DNA of 64,000 nucleotides from Alphaproteobacteria bacterium (GCA_964291285.2 OZ219786.1:1152001-1216000); one strand, 5' to 3'; counted from the first letter of the stretch, positions 35,820 to 50,354 are shown. Numbers and translations are program-made. The notes: a model not told the origin generated them from the sequence alone.

Positions 35820-36375
35820 GCGTCGGAATTGAAGGTGAGGCGTCGCAGTCGCAATTCATCGACCTGTGCCAGCTGCTCGGTGAGTCGACGCCGACCCGGC
35901 GGGCGAGTGGTGCTGCTTCGAGCGCGGCATGCGGAAGGACAGCGGCGACGACGGTTGGGCCGATGTGTGGAAGCGCGGCTGCTTCGCTTGGGAGTACAAG
36001 GGCAAGCACGCCGACCTCGACGCGGCGTTCAACCAGCTTCGCCAGTACGCGCTTGCGCTGGATAACCCGCCGCTGCTGATCGTCTCGGACATGGCGCGGT
36101 TCGACATCCACATCCGCACCAACTGGGCAAACAGCGTGAGCGTGACGCACGAGTTCGCACTCGACAACCTCGCCGAAGGCGCGACATTCCACCTCTACCG
36201 CGTGGAAATCGAGACGGTGCTCGACTGGTCGGAGACCGCCCGGTCGATCCTCGGTGCGCTGTTCGAGCACAGCCTCGGCCCGGACAAGCGCTCGCAACTC
36301 GGGGCGCACTACACCGACCGCGACAAGATAATGGCCATTGTCGAGCCGGTGGTGGTCCGACCGCTGCTCGCGCAT
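35820..36375 (+). pseudogene. Remnant of MmeI-like (type IIG/IIL) restriction-methyltransferase
   Basis: FIDLCQLLGESTP, GWADVWKRGCFAWEYKG, LDNPPLLIVSD, then a jump to SILGALFE...RSQLGAHYTD; frameshifted and truncated. Confidence 0.7.
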
Positions 36376-36757
36376 CATCAGCGTCATGCTGCCGGTGGCC
36401 TTGGTTCTGGCGGCGATGCTGACGGCGGCAGCGCGGGCTGTTGCGGGACAACAGCCCAGGGCGCCTGTCGTCCAGGCTCGGCTACCTGTCGGTTGCGGCT
36501 TGCGCGGCCCTGCTGGTCCGGACGGTGGACCTGTTCGAGATCATCGCGCTGGCGTCGCGGGCCTTCGCGGCCTACTATTTTCTGCATACGCTGCTGGCGC
36601 TCGTCTGCACCTACAGGGGAAGGTCACCAACGGGATCCTGTTCGCCGCTGGCGGCGATCCTAGCCTGCATGGCCGTATCACGCCATCCCGGCCAGCTGAC
36701 GGCGCACTCAAGGTCGAAGGTATTGCAGAGTGGGAGCATAGGAGGGAGGAAGGAGCC

Positions 36758-39700
36758 TTGCCAAACAGCAATCCCGACATCGAAACATCGGGCGAGCATA
36801 CCGAGCCTGCGGTCGTAACGCTCCGCCATCGCGCGTTGCAGCGCGTCAACTTTGCTTCGGCACAGAACGATGTCGCGATTATAGAGGAAATCAGTATCGA
36901 TAATCCAACCGATGCAGCGCTCACCGACGTCAGGGTCACCCTTCGGGCTTCCCCTCCCATCATCCGCGAAAAGACCTGGACAATCGATCGGATCGCGCCT
37001 GAATCACAACATGCGCTGCGCGACCTTTCCACCCCGCTCGACATAGAACGGCTGCGGGGCCTCGACGAGGCGGAAATCGGCGAACTCGAATTCCGCATGG
37101 AGGCGCAGGGACTTCGGACGATTGTCGAGAAGCGCCGGGTCGAGTTGCTTGCCCGCGATGAATGGGGTGGCGTGGGAGACATGGCTCAGATCCTCGCAGC
37201 CTTCGTCTCTCCGAATGATCCTGCCGTAGCCCGTGTCCTGAAGGATGCCGCACGTCTGCTGGAGAGCGCAGGCCGCGACGGTTCAATGAACGGTTACCAG
37301 TCGGGCGACCCGCGCCGCGCTTACATGCTCGCTGGCGCGATCTGGTCGGCGGCTACTGGCCTCGCGCTGAATTATGCCGAGCCGCCGGCATCCTTCGAGA
37401 GAGAAGGCCAGAAGGTCAGGGGGCCGGAACGCGTTACCCGCGAGGGTCTCGCCACCTGTCTGGACACAACGCTCTTCCTTGCCGCGGCCTTTGAGGCGGC
37501 AGGTCTCAACCCCGTCGTTCTCTTTTCGCAGGGCCATGCGTGGGTCGGAGTCTGGATCGTCAAGAAGGATTTCGGCAATTTGACGGAGCCCGATGTGGTT
37601 GCCGTCCGCAAGGCCACGCAGGCTCGCGAGTTTGTTTCTATCGAGACGTCGCTGCTCACCGCACGCCCCTCCATTTCATTCGATCAGGCGGAGGATGAGG
37701 GCCGTCGTCGTCTCACCGAGAAACGCGATCCCGAGTTCGTGATGGCTGTGGATATCGCCCGGTGTCGTGCCGCGCGCATTCGTCCTCTCGCAAGCCACCA
37801 GGACGCGGATTCCTCCGAATCCGATGCGATCGACGAGACCGTTCCCGCAGCACTACCGCCAGAACCGAACTTCGGGTCGCTCCCGGGCGAAGTCAGTGAA
37901 GAGGAACCCGAGACGCCTCAGGGTCGCATCGAGCGGTGGCAACGCAAGCTTCTTGATCTCTCGCTCCGCAACCGTCTCCTCAACTACCGTGACAGCAAGC
38001 AAACGCTTCCCTTGCGCTGTCCGGACACGGCCGCCTTCGAAGACGAACTCGCCGCTGGAAAGAAGTTTCAGGGATTTTCCCTGCAAGACAACGACCCGAT
38101 CCGCGATCGGGCAGTCTCCCCGGAGGAAGCACAGCGAATCGAGGAAGAAGTCATACGGGATGCCTTCGAACGCGATCAGATCGTGGTGCCACTCGCCGGG
38201 CGGGAGATGGAAAACCGACTGACCACGCTCTACCGCCGCGCACGGAGCGACATGCAAGAGGGCGGTACGAATACGCTTTTTCTTGCCGCGGGGTTTCTCC
38301 GATGGAAGAAAAAGGAGGGCGATACCCGCTCCTATCGGGCGCCTCTTCTACTCATTCCTGTCAAGCTAGAGCGCCGATCTGCGCAATCTCCGGTTCGCAT
38401 CGCGCGCCACGAGGACGACGTCCGAATCAACTCGACTCTGGTCGAGTTCCTGAAATGCGACTTTGCCCTCCACATCCCGGAACTTGAGGGTGAACTGCCA
38501 CGCGATCGCAGCGGGGTCGACGTCCCGCGAATACTTGGAATCATGCGCCAGAAGGTACGTGACGTCGCGGGTTTCGAGGTGATCGAAGAACTTGCGCTTT
38601 CGACCTTTTCGTTCGCGAAGCATCTCATGTGGAAGGATCTGGTCGACCGCACAGACCAGCTTCGGCAGAATCGGCTGGCAAAACATCTTATAGACGGTGC
38701 CGCAGAGACTTACCCAGATATGGGTATGGGAGATGGTTCTTCCATTGTGCCGAAGGAGATAGATCGTCGGCTCGCGCCGCGGGATCTGCTGACCCCTTTG
38801 TCCGCGGACAGTTCGCAACTCGCAGCTGTGCTGGCTGCCAGGGAAGGCCGTGATTTTGTGCTTGTCGGTCCTCCGGGCACGGGAAAGAGCCAGACCATCA
38901 CAAACATCATCGCGCAGTGTCTGGGCGAGGGAAAAACCGTGCTTTTCGTTGCTGAAAAAGCGGCGGCGCTCGATGTAGTCCACCGCCGGCTCGAGAGAAC
39001 GGGGCTCAGCGACGCCGTGCTGGAACTGCACTCGAACAAGACGGATCGGAAGTCCGTCCTCGCACAACTCGGACGGGGATGGGATCGGGCTTCGGGCGGT
39101 TCGGGAGAAGATTGGATCGACGTGACCGAAAAGCTGAAGCTCTCCCGGGACAAGTTGAACGCCTACGTCGAGGCACTTCATGCCAAAGGAACACAGGGGT
39201 TCAGCGCGTTCGACGCGATCGCTCTGGTCGCTCAGGGTGAGCCGCCTTTCAAAATCTCCTTCGCGTCCAAGGATGCGCACGACGAGCGGAGTTACAAGCG
39301 CTTGGCGGAGCTTGCTGCTGAGCTTGGGCGGACGCACGGGGTGGTTGGGGGCGGCCCTCCTATCGGGCTGGTTGTCCGCCAGGAATTCTCCAACCTATGG
39401 CAAAGAGAATTCCTGGAAGCCACCCAGTCCCTGCGAGCGGCGCTCGCCGAACTGCAACGCGCAGAGCGTGCACTGGCTTGTGAAATTGGACTTTACGCGG
39501 ACCTCAAACTTCAAGCAGAACGCCGCGCGCGGCTCAAGGCACTCGCGTCTCGCGCAGAGAGCGAAGCACTTGATCTCTCATCCGTACCGAACATGCCGGC
39601 CGACCGCCTGTCTTCCTTAGCGGAGGAATTGACAACGAATGTCAAGGGGTTGGCTACCGAAAGCACTAAAACAATTGCCACATATCCGCTTGACGCGGTA

Positions 39701-42700
39701 CGCCGCATGCCGCTTGAGCAATTGGATTCAGGTTGGCGCGAAGCTCAAACGAAGATATGGCCGGCCTCCGCATTTGCGAAGAGAAAAATCCGGAAACTCT
39801 TGCAGACCTACGCTGAGACCGGAGCGGTTGATCCAGGTACGGACTTGAAGGCACTCTTCAAAATGCGCGAGCGCGACACAGCGATCCAGGAGAGCCCCTT
39901 GGTATCAATCGCGGAGACCGGCGGGCGAACGGATACAAACCGTTCGACCGAAGCCGTTCGTCAAGCAATTGAACTTCGTGCCGCTCTGGCGGCTCTGAGT
40001 TTGGACGTCGAAGACTCGACTCGTTTCGAGGCGGCGACCTCTGCCCTTGCTACCGGATCGGGCGAAACCGTTCTGAAAGCACTTCAAGACTATCTGAAGG
40101 CAGAGAAGGCGGCTGACGACGGCACCCACACGTTTGTGCGCAAGGACGGCATATCCCTTGATGGGGCAAGCGTTGCCGACTTCGCCGCCGGCCTTGAAAT
40201 GGTGATGGCAGAACGGACACGTCTCCAAGACTGGACCAAGTGGATAAAGCGAAGCAACGAAGGTTCGGCCGCAGGTCTCGGTTCCTTCGTCAAAGCCCTC
40301 GAAGACAGACAAATCGAGGGGGATGCCGAACACGCATTCAAACGAGCATACGCAGCCTGGTGGCTCCCCCTTGCAATGGATGCGCGTGACGAGCTTCGGG
40401 GGTTCACGCAATGGGAACACGAGCGGGTCATAGAGACCTTTCGCAAACTCGACGAAACTGCGGCAGAACTGGCACCGGTCGAGGTGATGCGGCGTATCGT
40501 GCATGGGTTGCCCGTGAAGGAGAGCGTCCCCAAGAAATCTGAACTCGGGACACTCCGCCACCAGTTGAGCCTTGAGCGCCCCTCCCTGCCAATTCGGCAG
40601 CTTCTGACGAGCCTCCCCGAAACATTCGGGAAACTCGCGCCGTGCGTTCTGATGTCTCCGCTTTCGGTGGCCCAATATCTGCCGACGCACCAAGCCAGCT
40701 TCGATATAGTCATCTTTGACGAGGCTTCGCAGATCACAACTTGGGATGCAATTGGCGCGATAGCGCGAGGTCGTCAGACGATCATCGTGGGCGACTCCAA
40801 GCAGCTGCCTCCCACGAACTTCTTTGGGCGAGCCAATGACGATGACGAAGATCTGCCGGAAGTTGAGCGCGACATGCCTTCGATTCTCGATGAAGCCGGT
40901 GCCGCTGGAATGCCCTCCCATAGTCTCAATTGGCACTATCGAAGCCGCGATGAGGCATTGATCGCCTTTTCCAACAACCGCTATTACGACGGCAGATTGG
41001 TAACCTTCCCGGCCCCGTTCTCTGGTTCAGATGCAATCAGGTTCCATAAAGTGAACGGCACATATACGCGGGGACAGGGCCGTATCAACCAAGACGAAGC
41101 GGAGGCCGTAGCCAAGGCGGTGAAGCGGCATCTCACGGATTGGCTTACAATCCCAAAAGACAAACGTCATACACTCGGGGTCATCACCTTCAATGCCGAG
41201 CAGCAGTCGCTCATTCTGGATATGCTCGACGACATCCGTCGGAACAACGAGGCGTTTGAGTGGTTCTTCGCCGATGATCGCGAGGAACCGGTCATCGTCA
41301 AGAATCTCGAGAACATCCAAGGGGACGAGCGCGACGTGATGATGCTCTCAGTGACGTTTGGGCCCGATCTCGCCGGCAAGTTTACCATGAACTTCGGACC
41401 GATCAACGGGGAGGGCGGAGAAAAGCGCCTCAATGTTGCGGTCACCCGTGCCCGGCGAGAGCTCCACGTGTTTTCCTCGATCCGGGCTGAGCAGATCGAT
41501 CTTGGACGCACCCGTGCTGCAGGAGTGCGCGACCTGAAGGCGTTTCTTGATTATGCCGAGCGTGGACCTATGGCGCTTCCTGCGAGTGACGAGGGGTCGC
41601 TCGGTCCTGCCGAGAGCCCCTTTGAGAAAGCAGTGGCGGATGCCCTCGGTGCCAAGGGGTGGGAAGTTCGAACCCAAATCGGCGTGTCCGGTTTCCGCGT
41701 AGACCTCGGCATCTTGCACCCCGACTATGCCGGCAGATACCTCGCCGGCATCGAGTGCGATGGGGCGAGATATCACTCCTCGGCAACCGCCCGCGACCGG
41801 GACAGGATTCGGCAAGCCGTGCTGGAAGACCTGGGCTGGACGATTCTCCGGGTTTGGTCGACCGACTGGTTTCATAGTCCATCGCGTGTCACGGACCGCA
41901 TTCACTGTGAACTCGTACAACGCGTTGAGGAGAACCGACAGGCTCGGGCAACGGTCGAAGTGGACGAACAAACGACAGAAGCCGAATTGAGCGAGAATTC
42001 GGGCGATAGCGCGGAGATAGTCCTGAGTGCTTTGCCCGAACCCACGCACAATCTGGTCGCGAAGGAACAGGATACGGACGGCACCCGAAAAGAAGAACCC
42101 TTACATCCCATTGGCAACCTTGATGGAAACCCAGACACGGCCCATTTATCCGCTTCGAAAGCCAGCAGCGGCGAGAACGCTATACCAATTACCGTCGCGC
42201 CAATCTTTCAGGCAGCGCCCGGTACAGCGTCAGGTCCCTCTTTTGCAGAGTCTTCCACGGGTACGCATCAGGACGATGTCATTGCGGATGCTGATCTGTT
42301 CTTCGATTCAAATTACGTTCCGGTTCTGCACCGGCTCATCCGCCGCATAGTCGATCACGAGGGACCGATCACGCTGCATCGGCTGGCCCGCCGGGTGGCG
42401 CAAGAGCACGGATGGCATCGAACCGGAAAGCGTATTCAGGAGCAGGTGCGGAAACACCTCCGATCTGTAGAGCGTCACCGCGAGTTCGGCACCGACTTTG
42501 TCTGGGTGCCCGGGAGCCACTCCGACCGAGTGCCGTTCCGGGGGCTGAATGGTCGCCCGATCCGGGAGATTTCCCGAACAGAGATCGCTGCGGTCATCGA
42601 TACACACGCGCATGATTTGGCGAACGAAGAAGATGCAATTTTAGCGCTTTCCCGTTTCCTCGGCATTCAACGGCTTAGCAAGGATGCACGCAACTATCTT

Positions 42701-42751
42701 TCGGACTGTGTACAATGGAGAGAGAAGAATATAGCGAGGAAATTATGTTAG
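36758..42751 (+). CDS. DUF4011 - SF1 helicase - PD-(D/E)xK/Vsr-like nuclease - DUF3320 protein (Hhe-type anti-phage)
   Basis: RWQRKLLDLSLRNRLL (DUF4011), GPPGTGKS, DEASQ, QGDERD, RLNVAVTRAR, SPFE..IECDG..YH; TTG start after AGGAG; lower GC. Confidence 0.88.
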   Translation: MPNSNPDIETSGEHTEPAVVTLRHRALQRVNFASAQNDVAIIEEISIDNPTDAALTDVRVTLRASPPIIREKTWTIDRIAPESQHALRDLSTPLDIERLRGLDEAEIGELEFRMEAQGLRTIVEKRRVELLARDEWGGVGDMAQILAAFVSPNDPAVARVLKDAARLLESAGRDGSMNGYQSGDPRRAYMLAGAIWSAATGLALNYAEPPASFEREGQKVRGPERVTREGLATCLDTTLFLAAAFEAAGLNPVVLFSQGHAWVGVWIVKKDFGNLTEPDVVAVRKATQAREFVSIETSLLTARPSISFDQAEDEGRRRLTEKRDPEFVMAVDIARCRAARIRPLASHQDADSSESDAIDETVPAALPPEPNFGSLPGEVSEEEPETPQGRIERWQRKLLDLSLRNRLLNYRDSKQTLPLRCPDTAAFEDELAAGKKFQGFSLQDNDPIRDRAVSPEEAQRIEEEVIRDAFERDQIVVPLAGREMENRLTTLYRRARSDMQEGGTNTLFLAAGFLRWKKKEGDTRSYRAPLLLIPVKLERRSAQSPVRIARHEDDVRINSTLVEFLKCDFALHIPELEGELPRDRSGVDVPRILGIMRQKVRDVAGFEVIEELALSTFSFAKHLMWKDLVDRTDQLRQNRLAKHLIDGAAETYPDMGMGDGSSIVPKEIDRRLAPRDLLTPLSADSSQLAAVLAAREGRDFVLVGPPGTGKSQTITNIIAQCLGEGKTVLFVAEKAAALDVVHRRLERTGLSDAVLELHSNKTDRKSVLAQLGRGWDRASGGSGEDWIDVTEKLKLSRDKLNAYVEALHAKGTQGFSAFDAIALVAQGEPPFKISFASKDAHDERSYKRLAELAAELGRTHGVVGGGPPIGLVVRQEFSNLWQREFLEATQSLRAALAELQRAERALACEIGLYADLKLQAERRARLKALASRAESEALDLSSVPNMPADRLSSLAEELTTNVKGLATESTKTIATYPLDAVRRMPLEQLDSGWREAQTKIWPASAFAKRKIRKLLQTYAETGAVDPGTDLKALFKMRERDTAIQESPLVSIAETGGRTDTNRSTEAVRQAIELRAALAALSLDVEDSTRFEAATSALATGSGETVLKALQDYLKAEKAADDGTHTFVRKDGISLDGASVADFAAGLEMVMAERTRLQDWTKWIKRSNEGSAAGLGSFVKALEDRQIEGDAEHAFKRAYAAWWLPLAMDARDELRGFTQWEHERVIETFRKLDETAAELAPVEVMRRIVHGLPVKESVPKKSELGTLRHQLSLERPSLPIRQLLTSLPETFGKLAPCVLMSPLSVAQYLPTHQASFDIVIFDEASQITTWDAIGAIARGRQTIIVGDSKQLPPTNFFGRANDDDEDLPEVERDMPSILDEAGAAGMPSHSLNWHYRSRDEALIAFSNNRYYDGRLVTFPAPFSGSDAIRFHKVNGTYTRGQGRINQDEAEAVAKAVKRHLTDWLTIPKDKRHTLGVITFNAEQQSLILDMLDDIRRNNEAFEWFFADDREEPVIVKNLENIQGDERDVMMLSVTFGPDLAGKFTMNFGPINGEGGEKRLNVAVTRARRELHVFSSIRAEQIDLGRTRAAGVRDLKAFLDYAERGPMALPASDEGSLGPAESPFEKAVADALGAKGWEVRTQIGVSGFRVDLGILHPDYAGRYLAGIECDGARYHSSATARDRDRIRQAVLEDLGWTILRVWSTDWFHSPSRVTDRIHCELVQRVEENRQARATVEVDEQTTEAELSENSGDSAEIVLSALPEPTHNLVAKEQDTDGTRKEEPLHPIGNLDGNPDTAHLSASKASSGENAIPITVAPIFQAAPGTASGPSFAESSTGTHQDDVIADADLFFDSNYVPVLHRLIRRIVDHEGPITLHRLARRVAQEHGWHRTGKRIQEQVRKHLRSVERHREFGTDFVWVPGSHSDRVPFRGLNGRPIREISRTEIAAVIDTHAHDLANEEDAILALSRFLGIQRLSKDARNYLSDCVQWREKNIARKLC

Positions 42752-43415
42752 TTGACTGACGGACAGAACGGAGCATTTAAGTCCGGTTCGGAAGGAACAG
42801 CCTCCGCGAATCTGAGCAATCGCTTTCCTGCTTATTCCCAAGGATCATCCTGCGATGAGTAGTTGATATGGGATGTGTTGTGTTCTGACGGCGCTGTGAA
42901 TGAAGCGTGGGATCATGGAGTTGAGTTGGTATCGTCGGTTGTATCGCCATGCGAAGCTGGCGAGATAGCGTTCGGCATGGTCGGGACCGAGCTTTCGGTA
43001 GGTTCCGGCGATGGCGCTCTTGATGTTGCCGAGGGTCGTGTTGACCCATTTGAAGGGGGCCATGCGGGCTGCCCGGCGGCCTGAGCCGGTGCGGATGGCC
43101 CGGTGGCTTGCGGCGATGCCGTCGAGGGCGTTCCAGCAGTGCAGGGCATCGGTGACGACCTCCGTCCCCGGGGCCAGCCAGCGTTTGGCGCCGCGCGCGA
43201 TCTCGCGCTTGCGGAAGCCCTTGACCGGGGCGAGCTTGACCTTGCGCGGAGCCCCTTCGGCGCTGGTCGAGACCGCCGCCACGAAGGGCGTCTTGCCCGG
43301 CGCGCCCCGGCCCCGCTTGCCGCCGGAGCGCGACCCGCCGAGATAGGCGTCGTCCTGTTAGCGACGGTTACAGAGCGCGCCTATTCGCTGACATTTTTCG
43401 GCCGGTTGCGGTTTT

Positions 43416-44288
43416 TCAGTTGATCTGTTGGTCATCGGTTTCGATTGGTTCGCCGGCTCGGTCGCGGATGAGCATGTCGTTCCAGTCCCGGTTGTCGAGT
43501 GCGGGTCGCAGCCGGACGATTCTGGTGTCGTTGCGGGCGAGGCGCCTTGCGGCGTGATCGCCGTTTGTGGTGGCGTCGTATGCACAGAAGATGAGGCGCG
43601 GGTTCCATGCCTCGATCCATTTGGGGACTTTGGTGGCGACGGCGCCGGTGGAGACGGTGGCGCATTCGGTGCGTTTTACCGGGCCGAGGTGGAGGGAGAG
43701 GATGGAGAGTGCGTCGAGGGCGTTGCCGTCCAGGATGACGGCGTGTGGCCATTCGGTCTCCCAGGACATCCAGAAGCCGCCGCCCGCGGTCGTTTTGCGG
43801 TCAGCGGTGACGGTTTCGATGCCGGTAGCCTCGCCGGCGGCGTTTCGGCGGACGAACACGGGGTTGCCGTGAGGGTCGGCATGGACCAGGCCGAGGTCGC
43901 GGCACAGGGTGACGAGCGCGTCCGCGAGGCCGCGCCGCTCGACGAGGTATCGCCGGAGGTTGGGCCAGCGGGGGTCCTTGGCCGGCGCCTGCCGGCGGCC
44001 GCCTGGGGGCATTGAGAGGTCGGACAGTTCGGCGAGGAAGTCGATGGCGTCCGGCGGGGTGCATCCGAGCGCATGGACCGCCAGTTCGATAGCCCCGGCT
44101 CCCTCCTCTGCGCGCAGATGGTCGTAGAACATGAAGCGGTTGATGGAGAGGACCGATCCTGGCCGTCTCCAGCGCACGGCATTGTCGGGATCGCTGCGGT
44201 AGCCGAGGGCTCGGGCGACGGGTTCGAGGGGATAGCCCCGCAGGCTCTCGGCCCGCACCCGCCGCTCGCGGGGGCGGGAGGGATGCAT
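43416..44288 (-). CDS. DUF3991/TOPRIM-like (primase-related) protein inside the IS21 element
   Basis: GAGAIEL..H; LRRYLVERRGL; VILDGNALDALS; FCAYDA...G; RLRP....DWNDML. Confidence 0.65.
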   Translation of the reverse strand: MHPSRPRERRVRAESLRGYPLEPVARALGYRSDPDNAVRWRRPGSVLSINRFMFYDHLRAEEGAGAIELAVHALGCTPPDAIDFLAELSDLSMPPGGRRQAPAKDPRWPNLRRYLVERRGLADALVTLCRDLGLVHADPHGNPVFVRRNAAGEATGIETVTADRKTTAGGGFWMSWETEWPHAVILDGNALDALSILSLHLGPVKRTECATVSTGAVATKVPKWIEAWNPRLIFCAYDATTNGDHAARRLARNDTRIVRLRPALDNRDWNDMLIRDRAGEPIETDDQQIN

Positions 44289-44290
44289 GG

Positions 44291-45085
44291 CTATGGCGAC
44301 GGGACCGGGTTCGCCTTTCCAGTGCTTTGCCCGGCTTTCGGTCCGCGCCGGCGGCGGCGTTCGGCGCTGCGCTGCTTCTGACGTTCCTCGGCTTCCTTGC
44401 GGCGCCAGGAGTCGCCGTCGATGGCGACGATCTCGGCGTTGTGGACGAGCCGGTCGACGAGGGCGACCAGGCAGGCGGCGTTTGGGAAGGCCTCGCTCCA
44501 CTCGGCGAAGGGGCGGTTCGTGGTGATTATGGTTGAGTTCTGCTGGCTGCGGCTTGAGACGATGTTGAACAGCAGGTCGGCGTGGCGGTTGGAGTAGGAG
44601 AGATATCCGACTTCGTCGATGACCAGCAGGTGCTGTCGGGCGTAGAAGCGCAGCCTGCGCTGGAGCAGGGTGTCGGAGTCGATGGCGGCGAGTTCGCCGA
44701 GCAGGCTGGCGGCGGTTGCGAAGCGCACGATGTGGCCTTCGAGGACGGCGCGGTGGGCGATATTGGCGGCGATGGTGGACTTTCCGACGCCGTTGGGTCC
44801 GACCAGTACGAGGTTTGCGGCCTCCTTGAGGAAGTCGAGGGTCATGAGGTCCTCGACGGCCATGCGGTCGCAGCGCCTTGGCCAGTCCCAGTCGAAGTCT
44901 GCGAGCGGCTTGAACTGTCCGAGGCGGGCGTCGGCGAGGCGGCGTTTGAGGCTTCGGGCGCGCTTCTCATCTTCTTCCCACGCGATCAGGGAGGCGAGCC
45001 AGTCGCGCTCCGCGACTTCGCCCCAATGGGCGAGGAGGCCGTGCAGGCCCAGCGCGCGGGCGCGGTTCATGAGGGTGTCGGTCAT
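44291..45085 (-). CDS. istB: IS21 helper AAA+ ATPase IstB
   Basis: GPNGVGKS, LLVIDEVGYL, ITTNRPF.EW and DRLVH; start overlaps the istA stop. Confidence 0.93.
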   Translation of the reverse strand: MTDTLMNRARALGLHGLLAHWGEVAERDWLASLIAWEEDEKRARSLKRRLADARLGQFKPLADFDWDWPRRCDRMAVEDLMTLDFLKEAANLVLVGPNGVGKSTIAANIAHRAVLEGHIVRFATAASLLGELAAIDSDTLLQRRLRFYARQHLLVIDEVGYLSYSNRHADLLFNIVSSRSQQNSTIITTNRPFAEWSEAFPNAACLVALVDRLVHNAEIVAIDGDSWRRKEAEERQKQRSAERRRRRGPKAGQSTGKANPVPSP

Positions 45086-46587
45086 TCTTCGCTGTCCTTT
45101 TCATGGTAGCCGGCCAGCCCGTCGTATCCGCCGAGATCGTGATCGCGCACGGCGATGTCGCGCACGCGCGGGTCCCTGGGCAGGTCGATGGGGATCGGCG
45201 GCGGCCTGTCCTGCAGTTCGCGCCGCCGTGTGAGGCTGAGGCGCACGGCATTGGGATGGGGGACGCCGCGTTCGAGGGCCTCGTCGATGGCGGCTTCGAG
45301 CTCGGCGGCGCCGTATTGGTCGAGCAGGCGCAGCAGGGCGGCGACGGTGGCGCCGATATAAGCGCCGCGGGGGGCGGCCTCGGCGATCAGGCGCTCGCTG
45401 TTGGGCGCGGCCTGGAGCAGCCGGCTCTGCCCGCGCAGGCTGCGGGCGTGACGCTTGCGCCTGACCAGCTCCTCAATGTGTTCGGGGTTCTCGATGCGGG
45501 CCGCCTTGTCGAAGCTGCGCGGATGGCGGGCGATGACCTCCATGCCGTCGAGGATGCGCACCTCTTCCAGCGTCGCGGCCACGGTGAGGGTGCGCCGGAC
45601 ATGGGTATGCGGGACGCTGTAGTCATTGAGGTCGAACCTGGCATAGGGGGTCTTGGCGATCCTGACCTCGACCCTCTCGTCGACGGGGGGACGGTCGTCG
45701 GGCAGCGCCATCAGGGAGCCGCGCTCGCGCTCGAAGGCCTCGCTCACGGTGAGGGAGCGGTCGTCCGGCCAGGGGCGGTCGGCGGCGACGCCCTCGCACC
45801 ACTCCCGGGCCTGGGCGTTGAGATCGTCGAGGTCACGCCAGGCGCGGGCGGCGAAGAAGCTGTCGCGCACATAGCGTATGGCCCGCTCGACGCGGCCCTT
45901 CTCGTTGCCTCGGGCGACCGCGACCGGCTTCGGCAGGAAGCGGTAGGCGCCTGCGAAGTCGAGAAGCCGGGGATTGAAGCGGATGGCGTCGCCGCGCCGC
46001 TCCAGCACGACGCTCTTCAGATTGTCGTACCAGAGCTCGCGGGGCACGCCCTGCCAAGCCTCGAAGGCCTCGACATGGCCGCGCAGGAAGTTGTCCATCC
46101 CGGCGTTGAGGTAGAAGCGCAGGAAGAGGCGGCGCGAGTGGCCGAGCACCATCACGAAGGCCATCAGCGGGCGCTCCGCACGCCCGATCCTCACCTTGCC
46201 GAAGTGGGCCCAGTCGACCTGGGCCTGCTCGCCGGGCAGGGCCTTGAGGCGCAGATAGGCCTCGGCCACCGGCCGCGGACGCTCGGGCGCGATCATGCGC
46301 CGGAAGTGGCTCTCGCACCCCCGGTAACCGCGCTCGACCGCCATCCGGTAGAGCCGGCTGGAGGGCAACTTCGGCCAGACCGCCAGGGTCTGGCGGACGA
46401 AGGGCAGGAACGGATCGATCATCGAAGATCTGCGCCGCTTCTCAGGCGTGGGCGCCCCGGCGGCCGCCACCGCGCGCTCGACCGTGCCGTGGTGGACGCC
46501 GAGCTGGCGCGCGATCGTGCCGATCCGCCACTTCTCGGCAAAATACAGCCGCAGGATCTCGGCCCGGGTCTGCTGGTCGATCGCCAT
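45082..46587 (-). CDS. istA: IS21 transposase IstA
   Basis: N-terminal HTH, PGEQAQVDW, YDNLKS, KGRVER and NDYSVP; RBS GGAG. Confidence 0.93.
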   Translation of the reverse strand: MAIDQQTRAEILRLYFAEKWRIGTIARQLGVHHGTVERAVAAAGAPTPEKRRRSSMIDPFLPFVRQTLAVWPKLPSSRLYRMAVERGYRGCESHFRRMIAPERPRPVAEAYLRLKALPGEQAQVDWAHFGKVRIGRAERPLMAFVMVLGHSRRLFLRFYLNAGMDNFLRGHVEAFEAWQGVPRELWYDNLKSVVLERRGDAIRFNPRLLDFAGAYRFLPKPVAVARGNEKGRVERAIRYVRDSFFAARAWRDLDDLNAQAREWCEGVAADRPWPDDRSLTVSEAFERERGSLMALPDDRPPVDERVEVRIAKTPYARFDLNDYSVPHTHVRRTLTVAATLEEVRILDGMEVIARHPRSFDKAARIENPEHIEELVRRKRHARSLRGQSRLLQAAPNSERLIAEAAPRGAYIGATVAALLRLLDQYGAAELEAAIDEALERGVPHPNAVRLSLTRRRELQDRPPPIPIDLPRDPRVRDIAVRDHDLGGYDGLAGYHEKDSEE

Positions 46588-46588
46588 C

Positions 46589-47023
46589 TCACTCCCTTCG
46601 CGCCGGGCGCAGGCCCGGATAGACCGCCCGGGCGCAGAACCGCCCGCAGTGATCGCAGCGGAACACTCCGGCGGGACGGTCGGGTCCGAAGGGCCTCCTT
46701 CCCGAGCGCCCCGCCGGCATGCCCGCCACAACAGGACGGCGCGGTGAACGGGTCAAAGGGTGATGCGTCACTTTCTGCGCACGGCGCCCCTCCTCAGGCG
46801 CACGGACGCGACGGCGCTCGCGGTAGCGCCGCTGGCGTTCGGCATGCTTGTGACGGCCCCGCCGGCTGTTCTGGTAGCGACGCCCGGCAAGGCGCAGCGA
46901 GCGCCGCCGCGCCCGGCCGCTGCACGGACGCGAGCAGTAGATGTTGCCGTGGTCGCACCGCCGGCACAGCACAACCTGGCGATGGCACGAAGCGCAGGTG
47001 AACAGGCGGGCGGCGTTCCTCAT
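46589..47023 (-). CDS. Cys/Arg-rich putative zinc-binding protein upstream of istA
   Basis: CASC, CRRC, CSRPC, CDHC and an Arg-rich helix; stop is 1 nt before the istA start. Confidence 0.7.
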   Translation of the reverse strand: MRNAARLFTCASCHRQVVLCRRCDHGNIYCSRPCSGRARRRSLRLAGRRYQNSRRGRHKHAERQRRYRERRRVRAPEEGRRAQKVTHHPLTRSPRRPVVAGMPAGRSGRRPFGPDRPAGVFRCDHCGRFCARAVYPGLRPARRE

Positions 47024-47979
47024 CGCAATGACCGATGAGAACGGGGTGGACCCACGCCCGAACGCCTACGATACTGCGCATACGGGCCGTGCCTTGCATG
47101 GCTTGCATGGCTCGGGGGGTGCGGCGCCGGTCGTTGCCACCTAGCAAACGGGGCCGGCGCCGCATCGTTCTCAGCAGCCCCAGTCTACCCCCTCGCGCAG
47201 CCCGGCGACCCCCGCCGACAGCGCCAGGACACCCTCCCCTCGGCAGGCGAAAATATCAACGCGACGGGGGCCGGCGACTCCAGTCGGGCTACGCCCTCCT
47301 TCCGTCCCCGGCCCCCGTCACAAACACCGCCGCACCACAATCACTGCGATCATCACGCCCCGCAAAAACGCGCAACGCCAGCAAATAAGCGCCTTTTACG
47401 ACCGTCACCTACAGTGTCCATCTCGACCCGTCCGTCGAGCCGCGTGTCGGCTTCGCGCCGGGCCATCACCGCCATGATTTTCTGCTTCATGCTCCAGGCG
47501 GTCGGCTGCCTGACCCCGAGGCGGCGACCGAGTTCCACCGACGAAATGCCGTTCTTCGCCGTCACCACAAGGTGGATCGCCGCAAACCACAACGTCAGGG
47601 GCAGCTTGGTCGAGTGGAAGATCGTCCCCGACGTCACCGAAACCTGCTTCTTGCAGCGGTTGCACTGGTAAAGCCTGCGCCCGGCAAGAATGCAGTGCCC
47701 CCGATGCCCGCAGGAGCCGCACTCGAAACCGTTCGGCCAGCGCAATCGGGCTAGCACCGCCCGGCACTGGTCCTCCGTGCCGAACGACGCTCGGAACGCA
47801 TCGTCGCTCAAGCCACGAACACGCGATGCAACCTTGAATGCCATATCCATGACCTCCCGATAACAGAAACCCTTCCAAACCTACAATCTCATAAGATGAC
47901 TCTCAAGAATAAGCAGGATCGGAAATTTCAATTCACTCGCCAAAACCTTCATGGTCTCTGCGTTCTGAGCCGCCCCGTT

Positions 47980-48260
47980 TGATGAAACAGGGGCTTGGCG
48001 GCTTCTGCTGTGGCAGGGTGGCTGACGGCGGAGGCGGGGACGCGTGAGCGTTGCTTTATCGGTGACGTAGTTCCCGACGCCAAAACTGCTTCCGGCGGTC
48101 GGATCCGCACCCCGTATTGTGCCCGGCCATTGGCCGTGGACGCGCGGCAAAACGAACCGCACCCGCATGGCGGATGCGTGTCCTTCCGACTGCTGTCCCC
48201 GCCTCCACCGTGGCGATGCCACATCGTGATCCTATGCGATCGTGGCGAGAGCGCGCAATG
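47980..48260 (+). ncRNA. Candidate IS110 bridge-RNA-encoding leader
   Basis: ~300-bp structured non-coding region directly upstream of an IS110 recombinase; boundaries are guessed. Confidence 0.35.
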
Positions 48261-48271
48261 AGGAGAAGAGG

Positions 48272-49138
48272 ATGAAGACGGAAGGCTTGCATGTTGTCCG
48301 GGCGCGCGCGGCGGGTCTGGACGTGCACAAGATGGAGATCACCGCGACGGTTCGCCTGTGCGAGGGCGAGGGCGAGCCGGTGGTCGAGACGCGCTGCTTC
48401 GGCACGCTGCCCAGCGGTCTGGAGGAGATGGTCGCCTGGCTGAACGACCATGGCGTCGAGGCTGCGGTGATGGAAGGGACCGGCATCTACTGGCAGGCGC
48501 CCTTCGCGGCCCTGGAAGCGGCCGGGATCGAGGCGATCCTGGTGCACGCGCAGCAGGTGAAGCAGTTGAAGGGGCGCAAGACCGACGTGGCCGACAGCGT
48601 ATGGCTGGCCTGCGTGTGCCAGTTCGGGCTCTGCACGCCGTCCCATGTGCCGCCCGAGCCGTTCCGGGAGTTGCGCGCCCTGAGCCGCCAGCGGCGGGTT
48701 CTGGTCAGGCAGCGCTCCACCGTGCGCAACCGTGTGCAGAAGATCATCGACCGCGCCGGCGTGCGCATCGGCGGCATCCTCTCCGACGTCTTCGGCCTCA
48801 ACGGGCGCAGGATCCTCGACGGCCTGGCGCAGGGCGTGGAGCGCGAGGTCATTCTTGCCTCGCTCACCGGCCATGTCGCCCACAAGCTGGAAGGGCTCGG
48901 CGAGGCGCTCTCGCTCAGCCTGGGCGACAACGACCGCTTCATGCTCGGCGACCTGCTGGCGGAGCATGACGCGCTGGAGGCGCGCATCGCCTCCTACACT
49001 GACAGGATCGACGGGCAGATGACGCCGTGGGAGGAGCAGCTCCGTCTGCTGACCACCATCCCCGGGATCGACCGCACCGCCGCCTCGACCATCCTGATCG
49101 AGATCGGACCCGATATCGAGGCCTTCGCCTCCAGGGAG
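48272..49138 (+). pseudogene. IS110-family recombinase, C-terminally truncated by ISAs1
   Basis: DEDD RuvC motifs GLDVHK, MEGTGIYW and KTDVADS; LTTIPGI; ends at the ISAs1 TIR. Confidence 0.88.
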
Positions 49139-50354
49139 CAGGGGAATCGCTTTTGAAGATTAGCTTTTAGGAGTTTGCGTTTTCGATTCACACTCCGGTT
49201 TCCGTATCTGGTGAGTTGGGGTGTGAGATGGAGGAGTTTTCGTCAGTATTCGAAGGAGTTACGGATCCGCGTCGCAGCAATGCGACGCGCCACTCTCTGC
49301 ACGAGATGCTGATGATCGCGCTGCTCTCGACCTTGTGCGGTGGGGAGGGATGCGCGGACATGGAGCGTTTCGGTCGGGCGAAGGAAGGGTTTCTGCGCCG
49401 TTTCATGGAGTTGAAGCACGGCATTCCGAGCCACGATGCGTTTTCGGACCTGTTCAACGCCCTCGATCCCGACAGCCTGCAGAAAGTGCTGCTGCGGCTT
49501 CTGGAGGACTGGGCGGCGGTTCTGGACGGCGATGTGATCGCGGTTGACGGCAAGTCGCTGCGGCGTTCCTTCGCCGATGCCGCGGCGCGCTCGCCGGTGC
49601 ATCTGGTGCAGGCCTTCGCCGCCGGGACCCGCCTGATGCTCGGCCAGGTGAAGGTCGATGACAAGTCCAACGAGATTGCGGCGATGCCGAAGCTGCTGGA
49701 GATGCTGGCGCTCAAGGGCCGGATCGTGACGGCGGACGCGATGCATACCCAGCGGGCGACGGCCGAGGCCGTTACCGCCAAGGGCGGGGACTATGTGCTG
49801 GCGCTCAAGGGCAATCAGGGCAGCCTGTATGAGGATGTGCGCCTGTATCTGGACGATCCCGCCCAGGCGGACAAACTCCAATCATGTCAGCATGTCGATG
49901 GCGATCACGGGCGCATCGAGACGCGCCGCGCCTCGGTCTGCCACGAGATTGCATGGCTGCGCGAGCGCCATGACTGGCCGGGGCTGGCCGCCATCGGCAA
50001 GATCCAGGCCAGGCGCGAAACCGCAAGGAGCACCAAAACCGAAACCCGCTACTACATCATGAGCGCGCCGCTCGCGCCCGAGCGCTTCCAGCACGCCGCG
50101 CGCGCCCATTGGACCATCGAAAACTGCCTGCACTGGGTGCTCGACGTGACCATGAACGAGGACCGACAGCGAAACCGCAAGGACCACGGACCCGAAAACC
50201 TCGCCCTGATCCGACGCCTCGCCCTCAACATCGCACGCCGCGAACCCACAAAAGACGCCATGCGCGGAAAACTCAAACGCGCAGCCTGGAATGACGACTT
50301 GCTCCTCAACTTGATCCGGGCCGCCGCATGACAGGCCCAAAAGCGATTGCCCTG
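49139..50354 (+). mobile_element. ISAs1-family insertion sequence
   Basis: 17-bp TIRs CAGGGGAATCGCTTTTG and (revcomp) CAGGGCAATCGCTTTTG; no TSD. Confidence 0.9.
49228..50331 (+). CDS. ISAs1-family transposase
   Basis: DPRR, GIPSHD, AVDGK, KSNEI, TADAMHTQ, LKGNQ, HGRIE and HW.IEN.LHW.LD. Confidence 0.95.
   Translation: MEEFSSVFEGVTDPRRSNATRHSLHEMLMIALLSTLCGGEGCADMERFGRAKEGFLRRFMELKHGIPSHDAFSDLFNALDPDSLQKVLLRLLEDWAAVLDGDVIAVDGKSLRRSFADAAARSPVHLVQAFAAGTRLMLGQVKVDDKSNEIAAMPKLLEMLALKGRIVTADAMHTQRATAEAVTAKGGDYVLALKGNQGSLYEDVRLYLDDPAQADKLQSCQHVDGDHGRIETRRASVCHEIAWLRERHDWPGLAAIGKIQARRETARSTKTETRYYIMSAPLAPERFQHAARAHWTIENCLHWVLDVTMNEDRQRNRKDHGPENLALIRRLALNIARREPTKDAMRGKLKRAAWNDDLLLNLIRAAA

Follow-up and report, generated by a model that had tools for sequence, protein, structure and literature searches.

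A mobile four-gene IS21-family element with a predicted DnaG-type primase homologue behind istB

Transposases under the control of an AAA+ ATPase have a structural and mechanistic model in IS21. We analysed a 64,000-nucleotide stretch of an Alphaproteobacteria bacterium genome (GCA_964291285.2 OZ219786.1:1152001-1216000; hereafter the window, with positions counted from its first letter), which holds at 43356-47413 an active, mobile IS21-family insertion sequence with four genes in a single operon. Beyond istA and istB, the element encodes a small cysteine-rich protein at its front and, directly after istB, a DUF3991/TOPRIM protein (gene 4) whose model resembles DnaG-type primases and whose catalytic motifs are lost throughout its clade. 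IS21 is presented as a two-gene system in the part of PMC10122671 used here, and the two additional genes are the subject of this report.

The element, its ends and its copies

The four-gene unit proposed by the initial annotation, made from the sequence alone, was confirmed in its coordinates, gene order and spacing: gene 1 and istA are separated by a 1-nt gap, istA and istB overlap by 4 nt, istB and gene 4 are separated by a 2-nt gap, and the gene 4 stop codon lies 60 nt from the element end. The genes, the terminal inverted repeats (TIRs) and the insertion site are as follows.

43356-47413, genes on the minus strand: whole IS21-family element, 4058 bp
47023-46589, minus strand: gene 1, Cys-rich and Arg-rich open reading frame (ORF), 144 aa, nine conserved Cys, no named family
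46587-45082, minus strand: gene 2, istA, DDE transposase, 501 aa counted from Met49 of the listed ORF; NF033546, 244 bits
45085-44291, minus strand: gene 3, istB, AAA+ helper ATPase, 264 aa; PF01695, 186 bits; NF038214, 208 bits
44288-43416, minus strand: gene 4, DUF3991/TOPRIM ORF, 290 aa, predicted DnaG/T7-gp4-type primase homologue
47369-47413: left TIR (upstream in gene orientation), outer end reading CA on the plus strand, 29/45 positions matching the other end
43356-43400: right TIR (downstream in gene orientation), beginning TG, from alignment with the other end
43351-43355: target-site duplication, left copy, cgtcc
47414-47419: target-site duplication, right copy, gtgtcc, made up of two odd bases and then the duplicated gtcc
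47414-47850, minus strand: N-terminal part of the interrupted IS1595 transposase, outside the element; Zn_ribbon_IS1595, 54 bits
42845-43355, minus strand: C-terminal part of the interrupted IS1595 transposase, outside the element; DDE_Tnp_IS1595, 79 bits

Assignment to IS21 follows from both core proteins and from the ends. IstA scores 244 bits against NF033546 (cut-off 160) and 85 bits against Mu-transpos_C_2, and IstB scores 208 bits against NF038214 (cut-off 200) in addition to its PF01695 match, so that both exceed the NCBIfam equivalog cut-offs for IS21. An IstA-type DDE transposase, an adjacent istB, imperfect TG...CA TIRs and a short target duplication are all present; the element departs from the family description in having four conserved ORFs. 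According to the portion of PMC10122671 used here, IS21 members consist of two ORFs in an operon of ~2 kb with flanking TIRs, which carry L1/L2 and R1/R2 repeats, and generate 5-bp target duplications. By family membership, IstA would cleave the element ends and transfer the strands, and IstB would capture the target.

The element begins with TGTT at 43356 and ends with TACA at 47413. In an end-to-end alignment, 29 of the 45 outermost positions match between the two ends and the next 45 fall to background (14/45), in agreement with the ~40-bp imperfect TIRs and TG...CA ends that had been proposed. An ungapped inverted-repeat scan reported no TIR for this element or for the five-gene elements described below; the TIRs of both were located by alignment and by the limits of homology. 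The left TIR is kept across relatives, and the terminal motif of the right end recurs directly after istB in a primase-less derivative, L181. The insertion splits an IS1595 transposase, which reads VEMD / DAYLGG across the junction; the genome has uninterrupted copies of this IS1595, and at least 15 further copies in all. Thus the predicted split between EMD and DAY stands, but the near-perfect target duplication that went with it does not: in this copy the duplication is imperfect, with 4 nt (GTCC) duplicated and two odd bases at the right junction.

The host genome (6.1 Mb, 5 contigs) contains 18 full-length copies at 99.7-100% identity, together with four interrupted copies and several relics. 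Sixteen of the full copies measure 4049 bp and two measure 4058 bp, the difference being a 9-bp indel in the leader upstream of gene 1, and besides this indel there are just six variable columns among them. Perfect 5-bp target duplications flank 12 of the 18, one has a perfect 7-bp duplication and five, including the window copy, have an imperfect duplication or none; 5 bp is the normal duplication of this element family. The near-identity of the full copies indicates that the unit moves as a whole, as the initial annotation had held. In three complete genomes, elements carrying gene 4 have spread to 16-22 copies.

Gene 4: predicted fold and lost catalytic motifs

The protein encoded by gene 4 matches DUF3991 at 27.6 bits (cut-off 24.5) and Toprim_2 at 18.7 bits, under the cut-off of 22.1. 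We modelled it with AlphaFold2 (30-sequence alignment; mean predicted local distance difference test score (pLDDT), 85), and all ten Foldseek matches of the model at E <=0.001 were DnaG primases, T7 gp4 or Twinkle (2au3, E 2.5e-5). VIA-align superimposed residues 97-289 on the T7 primase fragment 1nui (Z 11.7, 169 aligned residues, root-mean-square deviation 3.7), gave Z 10-11 against DnaG catalytic cores, and matched residues 4-91 to the DnaG zinc-binding domain (1d0q, Z 6.2). At the sequence level, a PDB search with a profile of the TOPRIM clade returned one chance-level match only (E 0.15). The structure prediction that the initial annotation had called for thus returned a primase fold, and by its model the gene 4 protein is a compact homologue of DnaG-type primases that lacks a helicase-binding domain and is built from a Cys-less region resembling the zinc-binding domain, DUF3991 and TOPRIM.

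The residues on which catalysis by such proteins depends are missing. At the position of the TOPRIM Glu the window protein has Gly188, and members of the insertion sequence clade have G, K, A, N or D. The DxD site reads D237-A-T239 in the window protein and D-A-T or worse in the clade, with the second Asp replaced by Thr or Ser and the first conserved in fewer than 90% of members, and the basic GSRK-type motif is missing throughout the clade. No conserved Cys that could act as zinc ligand is present in residues 1-95, in the clade as in the wider family. All three motifs are missing from 68 of the 83 near homologues that measure 240 aa or more, whereas three of the 83 keep all of them.

More distant relatives present a different picture. 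A search of 1.84 billion representatives returned 604 relatives of gene 4 at E <=0.001, of which stand-alone relatives at 28-49% identity retain a Glu-Ser-Ala-Ile-Asp-type TOPRIM motif, Asp-Ala-Asp and Gly-Ser-Arg-Lys; the wider relatives with all three motifs intact include the IS21-linked L104. The window's clade sits on a long stem branch in the TOPRIM tree (0.76), and the ratio of TOPRIM to IstA distances is 1.70 within it, against 1.20 in the motif-intact five-gene clade. The degenerate TOPRIM motifs noted initially for a single protein thus prove to be a clade-wide loss of the Glu, DxD and basic motif, all of which relatives keep. Having lost the metal-binding Glu, DxD and basic motif, the gene 4 protein is very probably, to judge from its sequence, no longer a primase. 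Long blocks of the protein are invariant, and a C-terminal tail specific to the clade is conserved.

Conservation, selection and relatives

In a pattern scan of one genome per species with the gene 4 protein as query, we recovered 79 loci in ~20 genomes, mostly metagenome-assembled genomes of Alphaproteobacteria together with records labelled Dehalococcoidia, Pseudomonadales and Defluviicoccus. Every locus of this set that is free of contig breaks and insertions has the order Cys-rich ORF, istA, istB, TOPRIM ORF, so the synteny expected by the initial annotation was found. Across the loci, identity to the window proteins is 63-90% for the Cys-rich protein, 75-89% for IstA, 86-97% for IstB and 53-78% for the TOPRIM protein. 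All four ORFs are intact in 16 diverged elements, one TOPRIM gene running off a contig end, and the TOPRIM ORF remains intact despite protein divergence of up to 47%. As these loci had been found through gene 4, we added an IstA-based search of 40 relatives, in which all IstA matches of at least 76% identity fell within the same genus; gene 4 was found in 9 of the 16 same-genus genomes and in none of the 24 others searched. Three IstA copies of genome G010 without an adjacent TOPRIM gene were considered as natural variants and ruled out, being truncated or interrupted copies.

Selection was estimated as omega (dN/dS) by the NG86 method, which is rough in a high-GC genome, pooled over six phylogenetically independent pairs with a codon bootstrap.

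TOPRIM gene: omega 0.49, 95% interval 0.42-0.57
Cys-rich gene: omega 0.37, 95% interval 0.29-0.48
istA: omega 0.33, 95% interval 0.29-0.38
istB: omega 0.28, 95% interval 0.23-0.35

For the TOPRIM gene the interval excludes 1 in all six independent pairs, and the check for purifying selection proposed for gene 4 was therefore positive. Median values over the 119 usable pairs rank the genes alike (TOPRIM 0.57, Cys-rich 0.41, istA 0.34, istB 0.25). Within the TOPRIM protein, omega is 0.46-0.51 in the three folded parts, 0.84 (near neutral) in the linker and 0.37 in the tail.

Gene 4 co-diverges with IstA at the level of the major clades. In trees built by a quick method with SH-aLRT support only, the 16-element clade is recovered for both TOPRIM (100, starred) and IstA (99, starred), as are the same 8-member subclade (99 and 96, both starred) and the same 4-member subclade (99 and 100, both starred). 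The tree congruence foreseen in the initial annotation accordingly holds for the major clades but fails for the shallow branching inside the 8-member subclade. A complex prediction for IstA (residues 120-501), IstB and the TOPRIM protein, with an alignment for each, gave no verdict either way (score, 0.00; mark, 0.32). In a sponge metatranscriptome run and three other runs, RNA contigs of relatives cover the leader, gene 1, istA and istB, and hardly the TOPRIM gene; DNA contigs of relatives are likewise thin over this gene because it diverges fastest, and the low RNA coverage therefore does not bear on its expression.

Other IS21 lineages carry a primase gene with its motifs intact. A metagenome scan with motif-intact relatives as queries returned 80 loci, in 55 of which istB lies directly upstream (46 of these having istA too); an AAA_25 gene is directly upstream in 6, the upstream sequence is too short in 4 and 15 show other contexts. 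The istB-linked loci are mostly five-gene units, found at the following loci.

Five-gene loci (a), environmental metagenomes: L108, L115-L117, L122, L124, L127, L128, L130-L135, L137, L139, L141, L142
Five-gene loci (b), environmental metagenomes: L147, L148, L151, L152, L155, L159-L163, L165, L169, L171, L172

In L155 the order is a Cys-rich basic ORF, a ParB-like ORF with weak Pfam matches below the cut-off, istA, istB and a motif-intact primase gene, whose product passes both the DUF3991 and the Toprim_2 thresholds. Homology between contigs delimits the five-gene blocks at ~5.1 kb, with the primase gene inside TIRs that carry two direct repeats each, as described for IS21; the end-to-end alignment of the window element did not resolve such repeats. 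Closer to the window element, L104 has an IstA 50% identical to the window's, a Cys-rich ORF homologous to gene 1 and a primase gene with its motifs intact. In the IstA tree it branches outside a group that unites the window's clade with three plasmid elements, L092, L093 and L094, from Burkholderia thailandensis, Aromatoleum aromaticum and Mesorhizobium sp. In these three, a hypothetical ORF of ~70 aa overlaps the istB stop, at the place that the primase gene takes in the window element.

The protein encoded by gene 1 matched no Pfam or NCBIfam family and belongs to a group of at least 150 homologous proteins, none of them named. Nine of its cysteines are conserved, six towards the N-terminus and three towards the C-terminus, and an Arg-rich segment is modelled as a confident helical hairpin (overall pLDDT, 72). 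There was no PDB fold match at E <=0.001, the best rows being small zinc fingers at E >3, and the ESM Atlas yielded unnamed clusters only. Because the ORF is shared with the primase-less sister elements, it is a feature of a wider IS21 subgroup; in the annotated IS21 copies of L092-L094 the homologue upstream of istA is unannotated. Its product, a small, Arg-rich and putatively zinc-binding protein, is probably a nucleic-acid-binding regulator.

Upstream of gene 1 lie a leader and, just inside the left end, a hairpin.

47024-47174, minus strand: leader, ~150 nt, directly upstream of the gene 1 ORF
47093-47101: 9-bp indel between copies, in the leader
47263-47319, minus strand: long hairpin just inside the left end, 27-nt arms, 78% complementary, 3-nt loop

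The leader is more conserved than the coding genes (82% mean column identity over 15 elements, L013-L082, with long invariant runs). It is preceded by a promoter-like -35/-10 pair (-10, TAGACT at 47182-47187) and contains three mutually complementary segments, one of them over the start codon of gene 1. Rfam gave no match on the element, leader included, at a permissive threshold, and none of the 41 pairs predicted in the leader by RNAalifold showed a compensatory change, the sequence being too conserved for this test. The complementary segments suggest translational control, or a site for a protein or primase. The hairpin keeps its position in other sub-lineages with a completely different sequence, and may block read-through transcription.

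A very long ORF (36338-42751, plus strand, 2137 aa, from the ORF list only) ends just upstream of the IS1595 copy, which is adjoined by a further transposase-like ORF (48242-49156, plus strand). The host genome is heavily loaded with insertion sequences, and a diverged, older four-gene copy (83-95% identity) lies in pieces at C2:421955-426292.

Reading of gene 4 and comparison with known systems

Inherited with the transposase, intact and under purifying selection, gene 4 is best read as a primase-derived, now non-catalytic accessory component that probably binds DNA or acts as a scaffold in transposition or in its control, and not as random cargo. It would descend from a compact primase of the DnaG/T7-gp4 type, intact versions of which immediately follow istB in further IS21 lineages. 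There the primase would most likely prime DNA synthesis on the transposition intermediate or in gap repair; in the window's clade catalysis would have been lost and a DNA-binding, scaffolding or control role kept, comparable to the inactive primase domain retained in animal Twinkle, which also appears among the fold matches. This retains one half of the initial proposal of co-opted core components, since synteny, intact ORFs, trees and omega below 1 speak against random cargo, but not the other: with the motifs gone clade-wide, and the gene absent from a sister group and from L181, priming by the gene 4 protein is unlikely for the window copy and plausible for its relatives.

Several findings weigh against this interpretation. 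The three plasmid relatives, which were the ones examined among 30 listed IstA matches, have IstA proteins 58-63% identical to the window's and consist of the Cys-rich ORF, istA, istB and the ~70-aa ORF, without a TOPRIM gene, and in the IstA tree these TOPRIM-less elements are sister to the window's clade (support, 93). L181 (1211-4385, G012:C5), from a same-genus genome, is a single-copy three-gene derivative with an IstA 88% identical to the window's that cleanly lacks the TOPRIM gene; its right end abuts istB and it is flanked by a perfect 5-bp duplication, although its primase gene could have been deleted later than the insertion. Gene 4 is thus dispensable for IS21-type transposition in general. 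Nor is the primase family confined to IS21: it also occurs in units with rve and AAA_22 and AAA_25 genes, which argues against an obligatory, specific partnership with IstB. Purifying selection, on the rough NG86 estimates, is weakest on gene 4 among the four genes. Finally, the TOPRIM tree joins the window element to L013/L014 (97, starred) and the IstA tree joins it to L036/L015/L016 (96, starred), a conflict inside the 8-member subclade which indicates that modules recombine between co-resident elements.

The distribution of the gene would be explained most simply by a primase-bearing ancestor of the window's clade and its plasmid sister, from which the plasmid sister lost the gene and the window's clade lost catalysis only; alternatively, primase genes may have been acquired independently, the TOPRIM tree being unresolved at that depth. 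In the non-IS21 units (L096, L097, L156, L173), an rve DDE transposase, an AAA_22 ATPase and an AAA_25 RecA-fold ATPase are followed by a terminal primase, and the L156 group branches from within the five-gene IS21 primase clade. L149 and L101 show this context in part. These units represent a second transposon type, with a possible helicase-primase pair.

Other accounts of gene 4 fit the evidence less well. It could be a decaying relic, an ancestor's primase gene that is now functionless and persists through young copies and rare deletions, and the clade-wide loss of catalytic motifs, the fastest evolution among the four genes and the outright absence of the gene from the sister group and one derivative would all be expected of one. 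We nevertheless regard decay as unlikely: the ORF stays intact in 16 elements whose proteins diverge by up to 47%, omega (0.49, upper bound 0.57) is low in all three folded domains and approaches 1 in the linker only, the long invariant blocks and the C-terminal tail are conserved, and elements with the gene have multiplied in three complete genomes. Less probable still is a passenger with a role outside transposition, such as interfering with the replication of host or plasmid or with conjugation. Outside transposons, the nearest relatives are indeed MobV relaxase modules on mobilisable plasmids, and the module moves between transposon families; yet passenger genes typically vary between related elements, and this one keeps the same slot after istB, inside the TIRs and translationally coupled, in 55 of the 80 metagenome loci and all complete four-gene elements, and co-diverges with IstA at clade level.

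The idea that the protein is still an active primase or TOPRIM nuclease, priming or nicking the second strand from a non-canonical active site, draws on the confidently predicted primase fold and on acidic residues that the clade still conserves (D192, D244 and those around an invariant Trp near the C-terminus). We consider it very improbable, because the Glu position is non-acidic in most members, the DxD site has an incompletely conserved first Asp and Thr or Ser in place of the second, and the basic motif of all motif-intact relatives is deleted; in characterised DnaG-type primases, mutating the equivalent residues abolishes activity. More speculative than the accessory-component reading, and broader, is the tentative idea of a class of DDE transposons with AAA+ target capture (four- and five-gene IS21 and rve/AAA_22 units) that bring their own DnaG-type primase, some with an AAA_25 helicase-like partner, as a priming module acting on the strand-transfer intermediate. 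With such a module, transposition might become replicative or might no longer need the host restart primosome; the window lineage would then have kept a dead copy as regulator or scaffold, with the conserved, structured leader possibly its DNA or RNA site.

The elements go beyond the two-gene description of IS21 in three ways: entire lineages retain a DnaG-type primase gene immediately behind istB, in one successful lineage selection maintains a copy that is very probably dead as an enzyme, and a wider subgroup keeps an unannotated, putatively zinc-binding gene ahead of istA. This suggests that DNA priming, or the binding of primed or forked DNA, belongs to the life cycle of some IS21 elements, and makes it directly testable how cells or elements deal with the gaps and forks that strand transfer leaves behind. 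In practice, units of this kind, 4-5 kb long, fragment metagenome assemblies, and annotation at present labels their accessory genes hypothetical or DUF3991. No account of a primase or DUF3991 gene within an IS21 element turned up in our literature search, which did not extend to ISfinder, TnCentral or the supplements of papers, where such elements might be listed.

With canonical IS21 and IS5376 the window element shares an istA gene for a DDE transposase that is overlapped by the next gene, istB for the AAA+ helper, imperfect TG...CA TIRs, 5-bp target duplications and multi-copy spread. It differs in being 4058 bp with four genes, against a two-gene operon of ~2 kb in the cited portion of PMC10122671, and in adding a Cys-rich gene upstream of istA, a putatively primase-derived gene downstream of istB and a long conserved leader. 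The five-gene elements (L155, L139, L152) likewise have a Cys-rich basic ORF in front and the same succession of istA, istB and DUF3991/TOPRIM gene inside TIRs, whereas their IstA and IstB share only 26-31% identity with those of the window element, a ParB-like gene is added, the primase motifs are intact and the length is ~5.1 kb.

The initial annotation had also associated DUF3991-TOPRIM proteins with relaxases, and fusions to MobV (Mob_Pre) relaxases were indeed found: seven of ten long relatives scanned combine Mob_Pre, DUF3991 and Toprim_2, and the C-terminal halves of the fusions align to the 290-aa module at 24-30% identity over 89-98% of the query. These fusions keep the catalytic motifs, are joined to a relaxase and reside on mobilisable plasmids, whereas the window module is stand-alone, degenerate and inside an insertion sequence. 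In P0033 (387 aa), the last ~50 IstB residues are joined to a primase-like protein (PF01695 + PF13154), which may reflect read-through or an error in gene calling and not a genuine fusion.

Among structurally characterised proteins, DnaG primases and the primase half of T7 gp4 (2au3, 1dde, 1nui) share the predicted three-part fold, in which a region resembling the zinc-binding domain is combined with TOPRIM and the N-terminal subdomain of the RNA polymerase domain. Sequence identity to them is ~12-15%, and in contrast to them the gene 4 protein lacks the zinc-ligand cysteines, the TOPRIM Glu, the DxD motif and the helicase-binding C-terminal domain. The N-terminal domain of animal mitochondrial Twinkle, a primase domain retained after the loss of its catalytic residues, differs in being helicase-fused and eukaryotic, and thus offers an analogy for a retained dead primase rather than a close relative.

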